Shown: in pieces, positions 2,349 to 12,144 of the stretch | How positions within the stretch are numbered: position 1 is the stretch's first letter | Layout: each line of letters begins with the position of its first letter | Position numbers and translations under genes: made by a program | Notes under the pieces: generated by a model | Seen by the model: the letters and a program-made list of their open reading frames with translations, nothing else | What the model was told of the DNA's origin: nothing | The model's database searches: none | IMG/VR virus record: IMGVR_UViG_2630968500_000001 | Length of the DNA: 18,856 nt | Source of the DNA: a virus | Lineage: Duplodnaviria; Heunggongvirae; Uroviricota; Caudoviricetes | Direction: 5' to 3' (one strand)

Positions 2349-2893
2349 GCCTCCATCGCTTTATCCGGTTTGTCGGTGTTACTGCCCTGACCGTTCTCTC
2401 TGTGACGATGGCCGTTATAGGCAAGCCGCATCGCTGACATGGTGGTGCCGCCGGAGTCGCACAGGTCTTTCACCTGTCCGGTCACTTCCAGGTCCATTTC
2501 AAAACGCGCTTTAGGTGAATTGCGAAACGTGATCGTTTTACCTGCACCGTCCACCACGATCCCCTCCCGGGTCAGCGTCACGGACTGCCCCTGATCGTCA
2601 TAGACAGCCACCTCACCCGTCTGCAGCCCTTTCAGGCGGTAGCGCCGGTCCGACACCGTAACAACCACCGCATGAGAACGGTCGCCATCCGGAAACAACA
2701 CCACCGCTTCCGCACCGCTGTTTGCCCTTGAGGTAAAACCGTAGGGTTCAAGATGTTCAACCCCGGCTTTGGGTTCACCGGCAATCAGGGACACATCCAC
2801 GGTCTGACATTTCGTGGCGGCACTGATGCTTTTCACCACGGCCCGCCCAATCAGGCCGAGGAGTTGTCGCTGCATGGCTTCAATCGTCCTCAT
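2345..2893 (-). CDS. Baseplate assembly protein V / central spike (Mu gp45-like)
   Basis: 182-aa ORF immediately downstream of the hub gene, with overlapping start/stop at 2893. Confidence 0.6.
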   Translation of the reverse strand: MRTIEAMQRQLLGLIGRAVVKSISAATKCQTVDVSLIAGEPKAGVEHLEPYGFTSRANSGAEAVVLFPDGDRSHAVVVTVSDRRYRLKGLQTGEVAVYDDQGQSVTLTREGIVVDGAGKTITFRNSPKARFEMDLEVTGQVKDLCDSGGTTMSAMRLAYNGHRHRENGQGSNTDKPDKAMEA

Positions 2894-3972
2894 CAGAACG
2901 GGTCCTCCTGTACTCTGGCTTTTTTCTTTTTCCGCGCGCCGGGGGCTTCGGGTTCAGGCAGATAAGCATCAGGTGGGCCGACACGGATTTCCGTCAGGGT
3001 GCCGTTCTGGTCCTGAGTAAACGTGACTTCCGAAACAAGCAGTTCGGTATTGTCGAAACCACAGACCGGATCAAAGACAATCACCCGCTGGTTGGGCTGC
3101 CACAGCGTACCGTTACCCTGTCGCCAGCCCTGCACCACATAGGTGGTTTCATCCGTCCGCGCCGCCCGTTGTCGGGCTTCAAAGTCCGCACGGGCAATAC
3201 AGCCTGCCCCCGTAGCCTGCCCTGTCTGCCTGATATACATCGGACGGTAACGGGCAATAAATGCGTCCTCTGTGCGGGCCCGCAGCGCGGTGGTGGTGGC
3301 CTCACCGAAATCATCGTCGTTTCCGGCACGCTGCCCCGCCACCTGGTAAACAGAAAACCGCTCCCGGATACTCTTCTCCGTATCGCAGGAAAGGATGTTT
3401 TCCCCGAGTACCAGCGCAGTATGTGCCCGCGTTGAGCCAATACCGCCAATCACCAGCCTGCCGTGCGGGTCGTCGTAAGCCAGTGCCTGCTGCTGACCGA
3501 GTATTTTGTTGATTACCTCAATCACCGTTTCACCGTGATCAGGCTGGACATCAGGAATAACACCCGACGGCGCACCGTTGTTCACCACCTCAATGCCGAA
3601 AGGCGCAGCAAGCGCCTGCGCAATCTGTACCAGCGATCGTCCATTAAACTGTGTCGGTTCGGCTGCACAGTCAATCAGGTCAGCGGTCAGACTGCGTCCG
3701 GCAATACCGGTGCTGACCGAACGGGCATCGTAACGAACGGGCGTCGCCTCCACCCAGCCGGTGATCACCAGCTCATCACCAATCAGCACCTCCACTTTTG
3801 AACCGTTTTTAATGCGCGGCTGAAGCGTGGTGATACCCTCATCTCCCGGCCACTGGCGGGTGATCTCCACACTGAAATCCCGCGCCAGCCGTTCAATACC
3901 GGCACCGATGCGCACCGATGTCCAGCCATTCCACTCCCGGCCATTTACCCGTAGCGTGACATTGTCGTTCAT
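2893..3972 (-). CDS. Tail/baseplate hub protein (Mu P / gpD-like, Mu gp44-like)
   Basis: 359-aa ORF in the expected position after the DNA circulation gene. Size fits gpD/Mu P family proteins. Confidence 0.65.
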   Translation of the reverse strand: MNDNVTLRVNGREWNGWTSVRIGAGIERLARDFSVEITRQWPGDEGITTLQPRIKNGSKVEVLIGDELVITGWVEATPVRYDARSVSTGIAGRSLTADLIDCAAEPTQFNGRSLVQIAQALAAPFGIEVVNNGAPSGVIPDVQPDHGETVIEVINKILGQQQALAYDDPHGRLVIGGIGSTRAHTALVLGENILSCDTEKSIRERFSVYQVAGQRAGNDDDFGEATTTALRARTEDAFIARYRPMYIRQTGQATGAGCIARADFEARQRAARTDETTYVVQGWRQGNGTLWQPNQRVIVFDPVCGFDNTELLVSEVTFTQDQNGTLTEIRVGPPDAYLPEPEAPGARKKKKARVQEDPF

Positions 3973-5297
3973 TGCACTGGCACCTTCAGAGGGATCACCG
4001 GCACAAAGCCGGGATGCGTAATGGCATTACGCCGGATAATGTCCGCGTCACGCGCCGCGTTATCAAACCAGGTCGCCGCCAGCACCAGCGCGGGTAAAAC
4101 CTCATCCGGTGTGCGCTGAATGATCCGAGCAGACTGTTCAAGGCGCGTGTTGATATCCGCATTCAGATCTGCTTTCACCCGGCGCAGCGCCAGAAACAGC
4201 GCATCACTGGTTGTACGGGACAACTCCTTATCAATTGCCGTATTCAGTGTGTCGCGAATGTCAGTCAGTTCTTCCCACGTCGGCAGGTCAACCGTGTTTT
4301 TCACCGCCGGTGCATTGTTCAGTGCCGGATGCGTGACAGAAGGCCAGCCGGTGCTCTGCGCGGGTGTTGTTGACTGCCCCATTGTGGCATTCTGCATCAC
4401 CGCGGAAGTTGTGGGCGCAGGCAATCGTGTGACGGCATACGCCGCTTCGCTGATTGCGGTCGTACGAAGGGTGCTGGCAACCACGTTACGCTGCTGCGTC
4501 GCCGTGGCGTTGGTTTTACTGTCCGTTTTCCAGACGCCGCGCGGTTGCAGATCGCTGCCGAGGCTGACACCGGAAAGCGTTTTGATCATGGTGACCAGGT
4601 CGCTGGCGTTACCATAAAGGCGTTTCCCGGTACGCCACATTTTCTGCACCTGCTCAACGAAATTTTTGCCTGACGATGGCGGCGGCAGAAGTACCGAGAT
4701 ATCCCCCTGCAACAGCCTGGCGGCATCCGATACGGCAGAATCCACCACTTTCATCGCATCAGAAACATACCCAAGCATTGTGCTGGCATTACCGACGACG
4801 TCGTTCTGCACAAAATCTGCCACGCCATCGATACTGAAACCACTGAAGCTGTCACTGATGCAGTCATCCAGTGCAGAACAGGATGACATCAGCGTCTGCG
4901 CCGTCGCCGCACCTGATGTGGGGTAAGAGAGTTCTCCCGCTTCGACAAACTTCAGGTCAAAGCGGACAATACGCCCTTCACTTTTCGATGTGCTGACCCG
5001 AACCTCTCCGTCAACACAGACTTTCAGCTCACCGTAAGTCGGGTGGACAAGCGTGCCGGGACCGGGTTTATTCAGCGCGTCAATCAGGCGATCGCGCTGG
5101 TCAAAGCAGTCATCTCCCACCACATAAGCTGTGATGGACGGGCGGAAAGTGATTTTCCCCAGGTCTTCGGTATAGGGTTTGTCGCGGTTCGGGTATTCGT
5201 GCGTTTCCACACGACGACCGGTTCCCGCACTTTCTTCTTCAACCTTAAACGGCACACCGCGAAATGACGCGTCCTGAAGCCTGTCTTTCCACGTCAT
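3969..5297 (-). CDS. DNA circulation protein (Mu gp43-like), start revised to an internal ATG
   Basis: The track ORF runs 3969..5345 (458 aa), but its first 16 codons contain a hairpin plus T-tract terminator (5311-5334). The ATG at 5297-5295 (MTWKDRLQDASFRGVPF...) has GGAG 8 nt upstream, so about 442 aa is more plausible. Confidence 0.6.
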   Translation of the reverse strand: MTWKDRLQDASFRGVPFKVEEESAGTGRRVETHEYPNRDKPYTEDLGKITFRPSITAYVVGDDCFDQRDRLIDALNKPGPGTLVHPTYGELKVCVDGEVRVSTSKSEGRIVRFDLKFVEAGELSYPTSGAATAQTLMSSCSALDDCISDSFSGFSIDGVADFVQNDVVGNASTMLGYVSDAMKVVDSAVSDAARLLQGDISVLLPPPSSGKNFVEQVQKMWRTGKRLYGNASDLVTMIKTLSGVSLGSDLQPRGVWKTDSKTNATATQQRNVVASTLRTTAISEAAYAVTRLPAPTTSAVMQNATMGQSTTPAQSTGWPSVTHPALNNAPAVKNTVDLPTWEELTDIRDTLNTAIDKELSRTTSDALFLALRRVKADLNADINTRLEQSARIIQRTPDEVLPALVLAATWFDNAARDADIIRRNAITHPGFVPVIPLKVPVQ

Positions 5298-5310
5298 ATA
5301 AACTCCGGAT

Positions 5311-5334
5311 ATAAAAAAGCCCACCGAAGTGGGC
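5311..5334 (-). terminator. Intrinsic (Rho-independent) terminator of the moron gene
   Basis: Minus strand reads GCCCAC-TTCG-GTGGGC followed by TTTTTTAT: a perfect 6-bp GC-rich stem, 4-nt loop and 6-T tract. It lies 27 nt downstream of the moron stop codon (5363-5361). Confidence 0.65.
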
Positions 5335-5360
5335 ATGAAAGACATAAATTAATGTAAGGT

Positions 5361-5738
5361 TTACCCTGCTATTTTTTGAGCCAGATGAGCCTGCAATTTA
5401 TAAATGTTTGCTCCTTTACTGAACTGTTTTTTTATCGGTTCTGCAATACCAGAAATCCATATCTTCATTTCAGCATCAAGATCAAGATGCCCGGCGGTTT
5501 CAATAGAAAAGTTTGTCACAGATTTATAAGGAATCGAACGATACTCTACTTTTTTCCCTGTGACACCCTGCTTATCAATAAAAATTAACCTTCTGTTAGT
5601 CAGAATAATTTGGTCACGAATGAGTTTATAGGCAAGTTCGACATTTTCTCCCTCACCTAAAACAGCCCCTAATTCCTGTTGTGCATCTGATGCATTAATT
5701 TCACCGGCATTACCTATAATGGCATGTAACAGACCCAT
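5361..5738 (-). CDS. Moron-encoded small soluble protein, bacterial PH-domain-like (bPH_1/DUF1696-like); function unknown
   Basis: Preferred start is the ATG at 5738-5736 with AAGGGA 6-7 nt upstream, giving about 125 aa (MGLLHAIIGNAGEINASDAQQELGAVLGEGENVELAYKLIRDQIILTNRRLIFIDKQGVTGKKVEYRSIPYKSVTNFSIETAGHLDLDAEMKIWISG...). The longer track ORF (from 5819) would overlap the tape measure gene. Hand-counted GC is about 35% over 5401-5640 versus 52-62% in flanking 60-bp samples. The TNRRLIFIDKQGVTGKK...IPY...ETAGHLDLD pattern matches my recollection of bPH_1 proteins. Confidence 0.55.
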   Translation of the reverse strand: MGLLHAIIGNAGEINASDAQQELGAVLGEGENVELAYKLIRDQIILTNRRLIFIDKQGVTGKKVEYRSIPYKSVTNFSIETAGHLDLDAEMKIWISGIAEPIKKQFSKGANIYKLQAHLAQKIAG

Positions 5739-5774
5739 AGATTTCCCTTCAGTTGATAACAAACTTAAAGACAA

Positions 5775-5801
5775 ATTATATCTGGTTCCGTCATCTGCCA
5801 A
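5775..5801 (-). promoter_or_regulatory. Candidate sigma70 promoter for the moron gene
   Basis: Minus strand has TTGGCA (5801-5796), a 15-nt spacer, then a perfect TATAAT (5780-5775), about 37 nt upstream of the moron ATG. The -35 element overlaps the last codons of the tape measure gene. The spacer is shorter than optimal. Confidence 0.35.
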
Positions 5802-7746
5802 TATGCGTATAGCCAACATCGTGATTTATATCAAAACCGCTGGATCGCGTTTCCATAACCCGCATACCCGGAGGCGAATTCACAAAAGAGACCTTGATCT
5901 CACCGTCAACTTTTGGCGCAGAAGCTTTGTTAATCATGAAGGGATTCGGGCCTGTAGCATCGGAGGCGTTGTTTGACTGAGCCGGATCTACCGCCGGATA
6001 AGGTGTGTATCCCCGCGCCGGTATTCCCGTCCCATAAGCATCATAAGCACCCGCGCCCCACTGCGCCGAGTTAATGGCATCGACCGTGTCACCGGAGGCG
6101 TTGTTTGACTGCGCCGGATAAGGAGTGTATCCCCGTGGCGGTATTCCCGTCCCATAAGCATCATAAGCACCCGCGCCCCACTGCGCCGAGTTAATGGCAT
6201 CGACCGTGTCACCGGAACTGTCGGTAAACCACTCAATAATTGGCTTCAGCTTGTCCCACATATCCTGAAACCACTTAACAACCGGTCCCCAGTTATTGAT
6301 TACCATCCCCAGCGGCGACCAGGCAAAAACCTTCTTCAGAAGTTCCCAGCCAGCCTCAAAATAAGGACCAATGGTTTCCCAGAGCTTCTTGAAATAAGGT
6401 CCAACAACATCCCAGTTAGTGATAATTAATCCCGCAGCCAAGGCAATCGCCGTCGCAATCATGCCAATCGGCGTCATCGACATGATCCTGCTGACGATAC
6501 TGATGGCACTGCCCACGCCCATCAATCCCAGTTTCAGAATCGCAAGACCGGCAGCAAGCCCGACGACGCCGCGAATAACCCGGGGATTTTCATCCGCAAA
6601 CTTCGTGAATTTTTCCCCCAACTCCCCCAGCCATTGCGTGATATTTTTGGCGTCACCAGAAAATGCGCCGCCAATAGCCGCAAGGCCGTTAGTTGCGGTC
6701 CCCGTCATTGCCTCCCACAGGTTGGACAGCGTACCAAGCTGTGCCTGAACACGTTTATTCAGGCTGGCCTGTTTATTCATCTTCTGCTGGATCTGATCGT
6801 AACCATCCTTTCCTTTATCGATTAGTGCATTGACCACCTGAAGGGTTTCGGCATCATCACCAAATATTGCCTTAAGTACGCCTGTTCGCTTAACGTCGGT
6901 CAGTTTTCGCAGCTTTGCCAGTTGCCTGAACATGTTATCAAGACCGCCAAAACTTCCTTTGCCGTCAGTAAAATCGAGCTGTACCCCGAGTTTCTGGCGG
7001 GCCATGACTTTATTGACGTCCCTGATTTTCTTAACGCTTAATCCGGACTGGATAACTTTTCGCAGGGCATTACCTGCCGACTCCCCGTTCATCCCCATCT
7101 GATCCATCATGACGCTGATGGGAGCAAGGCTCTGTGCAGCCTGAAGACCGTCCTTGTTCACCATCTTCAGAACAGAACTGGTTTTAGTGAAGAAGGACAA
7201 CATGTTGGTATCGTCAACGCCCAGATAAAACGCCTTCTGGATAGTGTCGAACAGCCCCATCATGTCTTCTGACGCCGTTCCGGTAGCATCCTGCATCTTT
7301 GCGGCAAACTCAGCAGCCGCTTCCGGTGTTTTTTTCAGTTGTACCGCAAGATAAGCTGTCGCTTTACCCACACCACCCAGAATGTTTTCTGCCGGGATCC
7401 CCTGACGCACCAGCATCTGCATCATGTTCTGGAAATCAGCCGTTGTACCGGGTAGCTGGTTACCCAGGCCAATAGCCAGTTTATTGATGTCCTGAAAGCT
7501 CTTTCCAACCTCGCCGTTCGCATCCATCATGGCGACTTTCAGCCCGGTGGCGGCGTTTTCCTGATCGGCATAAGATTTCAGGGAAAGCGTCAGACCCGCT
7601 GCCAATCCGCCACCAAGCGCCAGCCCACCCTGTGACGCTTCTTCCGCCTGGCGTTTAAATCCCCGGATTTTCTTTTGCATTTTCGACAGCGCGGGAGAAA
7701 GCCTGTCGACACCGGTGATCAACGCCTTAAGCTCAAATTCAGCCAT
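5791..7746 (-). CDS. Tail tape measure protein
   Basis: 651-aa ORF directly downstream of the frameshifted chaperone pair. Has a central hydrophobic segment (…GLAAGLAILKLGLMGVGSAISIV…TAIALAAGLIITNW…) and a C-terminal tandem repeat. Confidence 0.85.
   Translation of the reverse strand: MAEFELKALITGVDRLSPALSKMQKKIRGFKRQAEEASQGGLALGGGLAAGLTLSLKSYADQENAATGLKVAMMDANGEVGKSFQDINKLAIGLGNQLPGTTADFQNMMQMLVRQGIPAENILGGVGKATAYLAVQLKKTPEAAAEFAAKMQDATGTASEDMMGLFDTIQKAFYLGVDDTNMLSFFTKTSSVLKMVNKDGLQAAQSLAPISVMMDQMGMNGESAGNALRKVIQSGLSVKKIRDVNKVMARQKLGVQLDFTDGKGSFGGLDNMFRQLAKLRKLTDVKRTGVLKAIFGDDAETLQVVNALIDKGKDGYDQIQQKMNKQASLNKRVQAQLGTLSNLWEAMTGTATNGLAAIGGAFSGDAKNITQWLGELGEKFTKFADENPRVIRGVVGLAAGLAILKLGLMGVGSAISIVSRIMSMTPIGMIATAIALAAGLIITNWDVVGPYFKKLWETIGPYFEAGWELLKKVFAWSPLGMVINNWGPVVKWFQDMWDKLKPIIEWFTDSSGDTVDAINSAQWGAGAYDAYGTGIPPRGYTPYPAQSNNASGDTVDAINSAQWGAGAYDAYGTGIPARGYTPYPAVDPAQSNNASDATGPNPFMINKASAPKVDGEIKVSFVNSPPGMRVMETRSSGFDINHDVGYTHIGR
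5961..6216. repeat. In-frame tandem direct duplication (132 bp + 120 bp) inside the tape measure gene
   Basis: Copy 1 at 5961-6092 and copy 2 at 6093-6212 (the match continues 4 nt to 6216) are identical except for 3 substitutions (6004/6124, 6016/6136, 6018/6138) and a 12-bp indel (5980-5991). The encoded peptide SGDTVDAINSAQWGAGAYDAYGTGIP(P/A)RGYTPYPA...QSNNA is repeated. Confidence 0.9.
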
Positions 7747-7921
7747 GTGTGCGTTTCTCCTGCTCTATCCTGTTTGCCTGACTGACCAGCAAGGGAATTT
7801 CACTGATCGGCATATTCAGCAATTCGAAGGGATTAATGCGCCAGTAACTGGCGCAGTCAAAGAAGCGATCAGTGAGGTATTCAGCCGTCAGGCCTGGAGG
7901 AAAAAACCGGCCACAAGCCAC
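7739..7921 (-). CDS. -1 frame extension of the tail assembly chaperone (lambda gpGT analogue); expressed only as a frameshift fusion
   Basis: The 60-aa ORF is in the -1 frame relative to 7888..8157, has no convincing RBS of its own, and overlaps the slippery site. Its end overlaps the tape measure start (7746) by 8 bp. Predicted fusion is about 140 aa. Confidence 0.6.
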   Translation of the reverse strand: MACGRFFPPGLTAEYLTDRFFDCASYWRINPFELLNMPISEIPLLVSQANRIEQEKRTHG

Positions 7922-11940: not shown

Positions 11941-11952
11941 ACTCAGCCCTCT

Positions 11953-12144
11953 TTACTGGTCGTGGCTTTTTTTCTCTTTTGTCGCTTTACTGCTTTTTGC
12001 ACTGGTTCCGCGCTCTGCTAACCCGGCCTGAAGTGCAATCTCCTGCACCCGGGCAGGAAGCGCCCCGTCGTCATACTCACCGGCCCGAATGACCTCAACA
12101 CGCATACCGTCCGGTGACCATTTCAGATCTTGTTTCAGGATCAT
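11953..12144 (-). CDS. Hypothetical small protein (63 aa) between the major capsid and connector genes
   Basis: ORF with a weak SD-like GGGTGA upstream and a Lys/Ser-rich C-terminus (…TSAKSSKATKEKKSHDQ). GC content is phage-like. Real expression is uncertain. Confidence 0.35.
   Translation of the reverse strand: MILKQDLKWSPDGMRVEVIRAGEYDDGALPARVQEIALQAGLAERGTSAKSSKATKEKKSHDQ

Follow-up and report, generated by a model that had tools for sequence, protein, structure and literature searches.

The site between the tape measure and DNA circulation genes of SfV-like myovirus prophages is a polymorphic cargo slot, reported here as new; our literature search found no published description of it. 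The DNA analysed here ("the window", 18,856 nt or 18.9 kb) is from an SfV/SfI/SfII-like prophage located at the dusA site of E. coli G5. In this prophage the slot holds a small AT-rich cassette (5801-5311, minus strand) with a single gene, which encodes a full-length bPH_1/PHb1 protein. The PH cassette is a well-built example of an already known kind of element, the moron. We tentatively interpret it as a classical moron that was horizontally acquired, sits in a recombination-prone slot and has a putative lysogen-protective function, an interpretation that, taken as a whole, we place somewhat short of an even chance.

The PH gene is flanked by the tape measure and DNA circulation genes. It follows the stop codon of the co-oriented tape measure gene after 52 nt, and no terminator was found between the PH and tape measure genes. 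The features of the slot are listed in the direction of transcription.

5791-7746, minus strand: tape measure gene; its last few codons vary with the cargo and form the left border of the slot
5796-5801, minus strand: -35-like hexamer TTGGCA, within the final tape measure codons (I-G-R-stop)
5335-5794 (approximate), minus strand: cargo-specific segment relative to the empty SfII-type allele, from junction comparison
5775-5780, minus strand: -10 hexamer TATAAT, 15 nt after the -35
5744-5749, minus strand: Shine-Dalgarno-like AAGGGA, 5 nt ahead of the ATG
5738-5361, minus strand: PH-domain gene (125 codons plus TAA; bPH_1/PHb1 family; RefSeq WP_001514801.1)
5313-5334, minus strand: predicted intrinsic terminator, GCCCAC-TTCG-GTGGGC plus T6 (stem-loop 5334-5319, T6 5318-5313)
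5295-5306, minus strand: conserved right border of the slot, where the DNA circulation gene actually begins (GGAG 5306-5303, ATG 5297-5295)

The original prediction, made from the sequence of the window, had described a promoter-like TTGGCA-N15-TATAAT, an AAGGGA, an ATG at 5738 and an ORF of about 125 aa, and we located each of them on the minus strand where it had been placed. It had also pointed out that the terminator falls within what an ORF track presents as the N-terminus of the DNA circulation protein. This is correct, as the longest ORF of that gene begins at 5345, just upstream of the hairpin, and the RefSeq start is at 5297, behind the GGAG. After the hairpin, the window and the same-strand cargo variants SKA5 and h225 share ATATCCGGAGTTTATATG; the matching stretch in the empty SfII allele and in the h176 variant has a few base differences. 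The low GC content from which a foreign origin had been proposed is also confirmed (0.355-0.39 over 5300-5800 vs. 0.53-0.60 in the flanks). The PH ORF has a GC content of 0.378 and a GC3 of 0.286, compared with a GC3 of 0.57-0.64 in the four neighbouring tail genes, and the cassette is the only part of the window where any 378-nt segment falls below 0.42 GC. We found no flanking repeats or att-like sites at the cassette beyond short chance matches. An imperfect inverted repeat of 10 nt at its borders is not kept in Edwardsiella, and an Rfam search of 5200-5900 returned no RNA family above threshold.

The promoter-like element is unique on both strands of the window (at least 5/6 matches to the -35, 6/6 to the -10 and a 15-19 nt spacer), with a chance expectation of 0.07 such sites in first-order Markov sequences that have the window's dinucleotide transition frequencies. 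Its 15-nt spacer is short for sigma-70, and an automated promoter scan that accepts only 16-18 nt spacers missed it. The element is present, as the claim that the cassette has its own promoter requires, and conserved across genera; in E. coli the -35 lies in tape measure codons and only the -10 is cargo-specific. The -35 is contained within TATTGGCAGAT, which is unchanged in six diverged copies of the cassette; in the Edwardsiella copies this stretch is non-coding, yet unchanged. GATATAA and the RBS (GAAGGG) are also unchanged in six copies, and the Edwardsiella -10 reads TATAAC. The terminator hairpin has an RNAfold dG of -11.8 kcal/mol. E. coli shares all 22 nt of the terminator with four of the five Edwardsiella-type copies, and the fifth has one different loop base. 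The idea that this terminator belongs to the cassette was accurate as to its presence and conservation but not as to exclusivity, because empty slots keep a near-identical TCCCAC-TCCG-GTGGGA hairpin plus T6, with a compensatory change of the outer pair. Each of the alternative same-strand cargos has its own hairpin at the same place, so that a terminator goes with the slot and not with the PH cassette alone. The promoter and factor-independent terminator by which a moron is recognised are thus predicted here at the sequence level.

The cassette had been described as interrupting a tail operon, and relatives support this, since the same position lacks the PH gene in SfI, SfII, SfV and most close relatives. 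The suggested comparison of SfV-like prophages showed that the slot is mostly empty and that others carry at least four alternative AT-rich single genes (slot cargos are about 125-225 aa). Approximately 400 of the roughly 1100 E. coli genomes with this tail module have a filled slot. The PH cargo was detected in 28 of 5426 E. coli genomes, and the other four cargos in 85, 178, 55 and 72. Among 80 IMG/VR contigs whose DNA circulation protein is 98-100% identical, 61 have empty slots, 10 have a TM-protein cargo, five have a signal-peptide cargo and none has the PH cargo. Hydrophobic segments at the N-terminus are common to the four alternative cargos. One of them comprises a TM segment, a linker and a tRNA_anti-like OB fold; it has a PHROG "Sie-like" match and shares both Pfam family and architecture with Sie2009. 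In the E. coli carriers the PH cassette was seen in no place but this slot, and the reading frame is intact in 24 of the 28; IS1 interrupts the gene in the other four. Edwardsiella phage EPP-1 and E. tarda prophages have a PH gene in the same slot.

Comparison of the E. coli and Edwardsiella PH genes yielded pS of 0.71-0.75, pN of 0.06 and dN/dS of 0.02-0.03. The proteins share 89-90% amino-acid identity, with synonymous sites near saturation. The surrounding non-coding DNA has diverged, while the hexamers, RBS and terminator are unchanged or nearly so across copies. Given a dN/dS of about 0.02 at near-saturated synonymous sites and the invariant signals, the cassette appears to be a maintained, autonomously signalled moron that, judged from these alignments, is kept together with its signals under strong purifying selection. 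The synonymous divergence rules out very recent transfer as the cause of the conservation.

The product had been predicted to be a bPH_1/DUF1696-like protein, and the match is very strong. Residues 3-122 align to positions 2-121 of the 122-position Pfam bPH_1 profile (PF08000; E = 3e-48, 163.2 bits vs. a cut-off of 27.7). A phmmer search against the PDB aligned nearly the full length to 3DCX (E = 4e-39; about 1e-39 for 3DCX/3HSA). The AF2 model (pLDDT 82) has stacked beta-strands (eight by DSSP, the first three residues long) followed by a helix at 112-124, and so shows the beta-sandwich of about seven strands with a C-terminal helix cap that we used to define a PH fold. Its best Foldseek matches are 3DCX and 3HSA (TM 0.80), followed by eukaryotic PH domains. 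All invariant columns are kept in the protein, both in a 20-sequence alignment (23/23) and in a 25-sequence alignment (36/36). Core and rim residues of the family are thereby retained, and D86, L87 and D88 are among the invariant residues of the rim. In crystals, Shew_0819 of Shewanella loihica (3DCX) and the S. amazonensis protein (3HSA) form dome-shaped C5 rings (Xu et al., 2010; PMC2817789), and we assume by homology that the E. coli protein may do the same.

The PH protein is 57-66% identical to chromosomal homologues from four or more phyla, including those of Streptomyces, Bacillus, Clostridium and Photobacterium. The chromosomal bPH_1 genes are standalone, with synteny within genera, Streptomyces among them. 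Across 80 species we detected no cross-phylum operon partner, and within-genus synteny alone provides no guilt-by-association lead. As the original prediction had stated, the family is without an assigned function: we found neither a function nor a phenotype for it in the literature. Neither the PH protein nor the other four cargos matched a PADLOC-DB v2 model at E <= 1, and NCBIfam had nothing for any of them. The PHROG family of the PH protein (phrog_7115) is not functionally annotated, and a Foldseek search of viral structure models revealed no relative with a functional annotation. No sequence or profile relation to validated exclusion proteins (Sie2009, Ltp and HK97 gp15 types) was detected, nor does the protein have a transmembrane segment, signal peptide or lipobox. 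Its maximum 19-residue Kyte-Doolittle value is 0.58, vs. 1.7-2.6 in Sie2009 and the four alternative cargos.

Genes for bPH_1 proteins occur in other phages. In at least 22 Firmicute prophage loci they are located between repressor/ImmA and integrase genes, on the same strand, and their immediate neighbours include an Ltp lipoprotein (two loci), Abi_2 and SIR2. The lactococcal int-cI slot likewise alternates between bPH_1 (ul36 ORF124) and Sie2009. The lysogeny-module members ul36 ORF124 and Min1 ORF77 were already noted by Xu et al. (2010; PMC2817789), who left their function open.

We considered the lactococcal phages as a precedent for a "PH-domain Sie" and rejected it. Sie2009 has an OB fold, and Sie309 and Sie312 are without a PH domain; Sie309 has only a SHOCT tail in common with bIL285 Orf2, and Sie312 has no match. 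The bIL285 Orf2 protein itself is of the bPH_3 plus SHOCT type, with a local match of 27% to the PH protein, and was named sie285 but is not reported as protective in the available text of the source (PMC6127208). As none of the validated Sie proteins examined (Sie2009, Sie309, Sie312) contains a PH domain, this precedent is not established.

If the cassette is a lysogen-protective moron, then sigma-70 RNA polymerase in a lysogen would start at the TTGGCA-N15-TATAAT element, read the PH gene alone and stop at the hairpin, and the downstream baseplate genes would consequently stay silent. During lytic growth the PH gene would also be read within the late tail operon, given that no terminator follows the tape measure gene and that the prophage carries a Q-type antiterminator. 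With low confidence, we suggest that a PHb1 ring, soluble or peripheral to the membrane, may act at the cytoplasmic face, where its conserved acidic rim would cap or bind a partner associated with the membrane. It could protect the lysogen in this position, most probably by blocking entry or an early step of superinfecting phages, and might represent a cytoplasmic-side counterpart of the membrane-anchored exclusion proteins in the slots of sister prophages; our confidence in both of these steps is also low. It is context that suggests exclusion or membrane protection by the PH protein, at a low level of confidence. The other slot occupants and the positions of phage bPH_1 genes elsewhere provide indirect support for a defence or exclusion role. 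This idea is tempered by the very strong conservation of the PH protein with vertically inherited chromosomal homologues, as identities of 57-66% and a dN/dS of about 0.02 are the signature of a conserved cellular function and not of an arms-race gene.

Other observations speak against a protective role. Without a membrane or export signal, the PH protein differs from every validated exclusion protein compared; it has no PADLOC match, its PHROG family is function-less and 4 of 28 carriers have an IS1-disrupted copy. A bolder version of the protective interpretation, which we consider distinctly unlikely, is that PHb1 rings constitute a new class of prophage protection factor at the cytoplasmic face of the inner membrane and that the slot is a hotspot of exclusion genes. 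PHb1 would then cap the exit of the DNA-delivery channel of a superinfecting phage, or a host partner that the channel needs, and the cellular homologues would perform related gatekeeping.

It is also possible, though on balance unlikely, that the cassette is a host-fitness moron, in which a captured cellular PHb1 gene contributes to ordinary physiology, for example tolerance of envelope or membrane stress, and not to phage resistance. Such a role is consistent with the close similarity to chromosomal homologues in four or more phyla with all invariant residues kept, with the standalone chromosomal copies, which show synteny within Streptomyces but no partner gene shared across phyla, with the dN/dS of 0.02-0.03 and with the absence of a PADLOC match. 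Such a stress role has been suggested for the sigma-W-controlled YozO of Bacillus, which is induced by antibiotics, heat and alkaline shock; another protein, YvbH, was found in a sub-membrane fraction (Xu et al., 2010; PMC2817789). However, the stress link of YozO is one of regulon membership only, and no stress phenotype is reported for family members. Moreover, the other slot occupants resemble exclusion or surface-modifying proteins, one of them Sie2009-like, and in lysogeny modules phage bPH_1 genes group with cargo of the Ltp, Abi and SIR2 kinds.

We regard as improbable a role as a lytic-cycle accessory, expressed late and helping the phage itself, in some hosts, with tail assembly, handling of the tape measure, DNA ejection or the timing of lysis, with the promoter-like element being incidental. 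The co-oriented tape measure gene that ends 52 nt upstream with no intervening terminator, the constant position beside it in two genera and the overlap of the E. coli -35 hexamer with the codons for the tape measure C-terminus all fit such a role. Nevertheless, most phages with 98-100% identical flanking tail genes have no PH gene and IS1 has disrupted it in four lysogens, from which we conclude that the gene is dispensable for the virion. In addition, the Firmicute family members are in the lysogeny module and transcribed with the repressor, the promoter hexamers are kept in Edwardsiella where the stretch no longer encodes tape measure protein, and the C5 ring of the homologues would fit no common tail symmetry (based on PMC2817789). 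A neutral passenger, left by phage recombination and with no current function, could explain why the gene is rare and IS1-disrupted in four of its 28 carriers, but is highly improbable given 89-90% amino-acid identity despite near-saturated synonymous sites (dN/dS of about 0.02), regulatory islands and a hairpin kept amid diverged non-coding DNA, and an intact frame in 24 of 28 carriers.

PF08000 is a very widespread family of small proteins with about 60% identity across phyla and crystal structures since 2008. Here the PH gene is found alone, with its own signals, in tractable E. coli, and the empty, four-cargo and IS1-disrupted alleles are ready-made controls. A phage or envelope-stress screen on isogenic lysogens could yield the first phenotype for PF08000. 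The slot is also a compact source of candidate exclusion genes, and its Sie2009-resembling cargo would give a Gram-positive system a Gram-negative counterpart.

Lambdoid morons are reportedly extra genes of atypical GC content, flanked by a promoter and a factor-independent terminator. Like classical morons in the sense of Juhala et al. (2000), the PH gene is a single extra gene in a late structural operon and is missing from close relatives. HK97 gp15, the gene for which lies beside the tape measure gene, is said to be an inner-membrane superinfection exclusion protein that is expressed from the prophage and blocks other phages. Tab, a protein of 83 residues and novel sequence from Pseudomonas phage JBD26, is likewise encoded by a prophage-expressed moron in the late operon and blocks phages (PMC10884400). 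The PH product, a conserved cytoplasmic protein with a PH fold and widespread homologues in cells, has no sequence or fold relation to Tab or gp15. It resembles the Shewanella PHb1 proteins (Shew_0819/3DCX and 3HSA) in length and single-domain architecture, but the E. coli copy is in the tail operon of a Gram-negative myovirus prophage with its own promoter-like element. It is neither a chromosomal gene nor part of a lysogeny module.

The int-cI slot of lactococcal P335 phages holds sie genes, namely Sie2009 of Tuc2009 and orf2 of bIL285, bIL309 and bIL312 (McGrath 2002 and Mahony 2008, as summarised in PMC6127208). Both that slot, which is expressed in lysogens, and the one described here are variable and take single genes, and both have Sie2009-type OB-fold and bPH_1 occupants. 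They differ in that the lactococcal slot belongs to another phage lineage and to the lysogeny module instead of the tail operon, and the validated members examined (Sie2009, Sie309 and Sie312) do not belong to the PH-domain proteins. In P2-like phages and P4 satellites, anti-phage systems occupy prophage hotspots (Rousset et al., 2022; PMC9122126). The cargos of the E. coli slot differ from those of the P2/P4 hotspots in being small single genes (about 125-225 aa) with no PADLOC matches, but like these hotspots the slot has a fixed position between conserved genes, and unrelated cargos alternate there on near-identical backbones.

An identical copy of the window lies in E. coli G5 (NZ_CP060065), where it makes up the head and tail module of a prophage integrated beside dusA; the Shigella phages SfI, SfII and SfV share 95–96% identity with this module. 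The original prediction had placed an AT-rich single-gene moron, with its own promoter and terminator, between the tape measure and DNA circulation genes; moron architecture of this kind is textbook. All of the predicted elements, including an ORF of ~125 aa, are present when 5100–6000 is read on the minus strand:

5801–5796, minus: −35-like TTGGCA, inside the final tape measure codons
5780–5775, minus: −10-like TATAAT, 15 nt past TTGGCA
5749–5744, minus: RBS-like AAGGGA, 5 nt ahead of the ATG
5738–5361, minus: PH ORF, 125 codons, ATG at 5738 and TAA at 5363–5361
5334–5319, minus: hairpin GCCCAC-TTCG-GTGGGC, then T6 at 5318–5313, both found by the terminator scan
5297, minus: ATG of the DNA circulation gene with GGAG in front, in agreement with RefSeq

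The tape measure gene ends in TAT ACG CAT ATT GGC AGA TGA, at 5791. The terminator falls, as proposed, within what the ORF track gives as the N-terminus of the DNA circulation protein. That longest ORF begins at ATG 5345, which we rejected as the start in favor of the RefSeq position. The promoter-like element is the only site in the window with at least five of six −35 and all six −10 matches, and 0.07 such sites are expected in random sequence with the same dinucleotide transition frequencies. The built-in promoter scan missed it because that scan takes only 16–18 nt spacers. The folding energy of the hairpin is −11.8 kcal/mol. The reported composition dip is real by three measures: GC is 0.355–0.39 over 5300–5800 versus 0.53–0.60 in the flanks, GC3 is 0.286 in the PH ORF versus 0.57–0.64 in four neighboring tail genes, and the cassette is the only stretch of the whole window with GC < 0.42 over 378 nt.

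Elsewhere in the window, the tail assembly chaperone gene (8157–7888, minus) stops shortly past GGTTTTTTC, with a T-run at ~7901–7906, and this region probably corresponds to the −1 frameshift site conserved among tail assembly chaperones. A 60-aa ORF (7921–7739, minus) overlaps the chaperone gene and spans the 141 nt that separate it from the start of the tape measure gene. RefSeq also annotates a frameshifted hypothetical gene at 11943–12144 (minus), between the major capsid and head-tail connector genes.

The PH gene is absent from SfI, SfII and SfV, where 60 nt separate the tape measure stop from the DNA circulation start. This spacer holds TCCCAC-TCCG-GTGGGA and T6, annotated as a terminator in the SfII record. 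Other E. coli prophages carry different single genes in this slot (positions are those of each compared record):

L003 1889–2401, same strand: 170 aa, signal-peptide-like N-terminus (phage SKA5)
L006 1689–2219, same strand: 176 aa, N-terminal hydrophobic (TM) helix
L005 1852–2529, same strand: 225 aa, lipobox LLGGC
L261 1130–1576 (+) and L004 1827–2213 (+), opposite strand: 148 aa, TM helix, Ser-rich linker and tRNA_anti-like OB fold

The GN05505 copy of the 148-aa cargo (L004) is 5′-truncated and lacks the TM helix. Neither Pfam nor PADLOC gave a match for the 170-, 176- or 225-aa cargo; these are candidate exclusion or surface-modifying genes. The same-strand cargos are all AT-rich with promoter-like hexamers, and each is closed by its own GC-rich hairpin and T-run. 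The next stretch, holding the DNA circulation RBS and start, is ATATCCGGAGTTTATATG in the window, SKA5 and the 225-aa variants and has a few base changes in the others, and the final few tape measure codons vary by cargo. We found no flanking repeats around the cassette pointing to site-specific insertion. Given this and the conserved flanks, homologous recombination across those flanks is the simplest reading of how cargo is exchanged.

We sampled 80 IMG/VR contigs with a DNA circulation protein 98–100% identical to that of the window. The slot is empty, with an identical spacer, in 61; ten carry the 176-aa cargo, five the 170-aa cargo and none the PH cargo, and in four no tape measure 3′ end was located. 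Among 5426 complete E. coli genomes, ~1094 of which matched the module, cargo DNA was detected for PH in 28, the 170-aa cargo in 85, the 176-aa in 178, the 225-aa in 55 and the 148-aa OB-fold in 72. All of the E. coli PH copies are ≥99% identical and lie in the slot, and IS1B interrupts the gene in 4 of the 28 carriers (L259, an interrupted copy, 2522–3675), leaving fragments of 100 and 33 aa. These comparisons show, from gene content and flanks, that the slot is a site of cargo exchange among near-identical phages.

One PH prophage was deposited as a 70,209-bp circular “plasmid” (NZ_AP023208.1, strain TUM18781; our L260), which could be an assembly artefact or the prophage in excised or episomal form. 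Its tape measure protein has 611 aa versus 651 aa in the window. The strong empty-slot hairpin and T6 (SfII: L002 1808–1846) show no variation across the 61 sampled contigs, and even without cargo the late tail operon contains this intrinsic terminator. It may govern the tail:baseplate expression ratio or act as a cargo landing site.

The product, already labeled “PH domain-containing protein” in RefSeq (WP_001514801.1), was proposed to be PH-like, and profile and structure prediction both agree. Pfam bPH_1 (PF08000, PHb1) covers the domain end to end (E = 3e-48), phmmer against PDB sequences aligned 3DCX and 3HSA (Shewanella PHb1) over nearly the full length at ~1e-39, and the AlphaFold model (pLDDT 82), a PH beta-sandwich with a C-terminal helix, matches these structures at TM 0.80, with eukaryotic PH domains next. 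Every invariant family residue is present and no hydrophobic segment was found. PADLOC and NCBIfam gave no match, and PHROG assigned the protein to phrog_7115, a function-unknown family. Xu et al. (2010, PMC2817789) showed PHb1 assembling into a dome-shaped C5 ring whose rim bears a conserved, electronegative site; they argued for a protein partner and against a lipid as ligand, speculated that the ring caps a membrane-associated assembly, and pointed out members in phage lysogeny modules, leaving their function open. The family is thus known, with its structure solved and its phage presence noted in 2010; our literature search found no later functional assignment, as the original prediction had supposed. 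By composition, distribution and profile, the cassette is shown to be an accessory, horizontally acquired single gene encoding a PHb1 protein.

In Edwardsiella phage EPP-1 and in E. tarda prophages, this slot encodes a protein of 88–90% identity. DNA identity between the E. coli and Edwardsiella genes is just 79%, with synonymous sites near saturation (pS 0.71–0.75) and pN of 0.06, so that dN/dS is 0.02–0.03. We aligned six cassette copies from both hosts. TATTGGCAGAT (which includes the −35), GATATAA (which includes the −10) and the RBS GAAGGG are unchanged in all six, and the 22-nt hairpin and T6 are identical in five, the sixth having one loop base changed; the DNA between these elements has diverged, with indels. 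The Edwardsiella −35 stretch lies inside a fossil tape measure 3′ end of SfV type, interrupted by stops, and its conservation is therefore not due to coding:

L008 3850–4000 and L011 5849–6000 (Edwardsiella records), upstream of the PH gene: fossil of ~60 nt with TTGGCA-N15-TATAAC

The fossil is ~150 nt past these phages’ own tape measure stop, which suggests that the cassette moved along with its left flank. Conservation of the elements is the best available in silico support that the predicted promoter and terminator are functional, with the caveats of a 15-nt spacer and an Edwardsiella −10 of TATAAC.

Chromosomal proteins of Photobacterium, Bacillus, Clostridium, Paenibacillus, Streptomyces, Bordetella, a cyanobacterium and Herpetosiphon are 57–66% identical to the prophage protein. 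The closest non-phage copies (Edaphovirga, 72%; Photobacterium, 66%) stand alone amid metabolic genes. Across 80 species, chromosomal bPH_1 neighbors are conserved within genera only, with no cross-phylum partner gene. By this distribution the PH gene appears to be of cellular origin and captured by phage, unlike a typical fast-evolving defense gene. A 65% identical bPH_1 on an SRR29693848 contig (L018 1–12378) neighbors a KAP-family NTPase, a KptA/Tpt1-like RNA 2′-phosphotransferase, DUF2625 and a large DUF676 protein, an island-like and possibly defense-related neighborhood.

In phages, the setting differs from this and recurs: bPH_1 lies between repressor/ImmA genes and the integrase, on the same strand, in at least 22 of 66 non-enterobacterial IMG/VR loci, and direct neighbors include an Ltp lipoprotein (two loci), Abi_2 and SIR2_2. 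Vibrio P2/186-like phage 10N.286.45.B12_PE001 (L010 2740–6902) encodes cI, bPH_1, a 612-aa SIR2_2/TPR protein and int, in that order, on one strand; the middle pair may be a two-gene unit in which PHb1 is paired with a SIR2 effector.

In the lysogen, the PH gene would be transcribed alone, and the hairpin would stop this transcript and insulate the baseplate genes. From context we tentatively prefer the reading that PHb1 protects the lysogen at the inner membrane face, most probably against superinfecting phage. The main rival, somewhat less probable, is that the prophage supplies an ordinary cellular PHb1 activity, perhaps envelope-stress tolerance, which the extreme conservation and low dN/dS favor. 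Late transcription of the PH gene is also expected, since the tape measure gene is not set apart from it and the G5 prophage encodes an antitermination protein. A lytic-cycle role is unlikely. The alignments show coding sequence and flanking signals kept by selection, and a neutral passenger is very improbable.

Prophage cargo hotspots are already known from P2/P4 (PMC9122126). The SfV-like slot, its cargo set and its lactococcal parallel appear, from a limited literature search, to be undescribed. The chief value of the cassette is as a clean, genetically tractable way into PF08000 function. PH domains also occur as accessory domains in some defense proteins, for example in SNIPE homologues (PMC13190303) and in a Thoeris system protein of E. 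coli CFT073 (PMC11204291), which says little about stand-alone PHb1. The lactococcal parallel is limited: the validated exclusion proteins Sie309 and Sie312 lack a PH domain, and bIL285 Orf2 (bPH_3+SHOCT) carries the name sie285, with no report of protection in PMC6127208. The int-cI slot is occupied by a bPH_1 gene, ORF124, in Lactococcus phage ul36 and by the validated exclusion protein Sie2009 in Tuc2009. Sie2009 consists of a TM segment, a linker and a tRNA_anti-like OB fold, the same Pfam family and architecture as the 148-aa E. coli cargo. Thus, two unrelated slots hold the same two cargo families.
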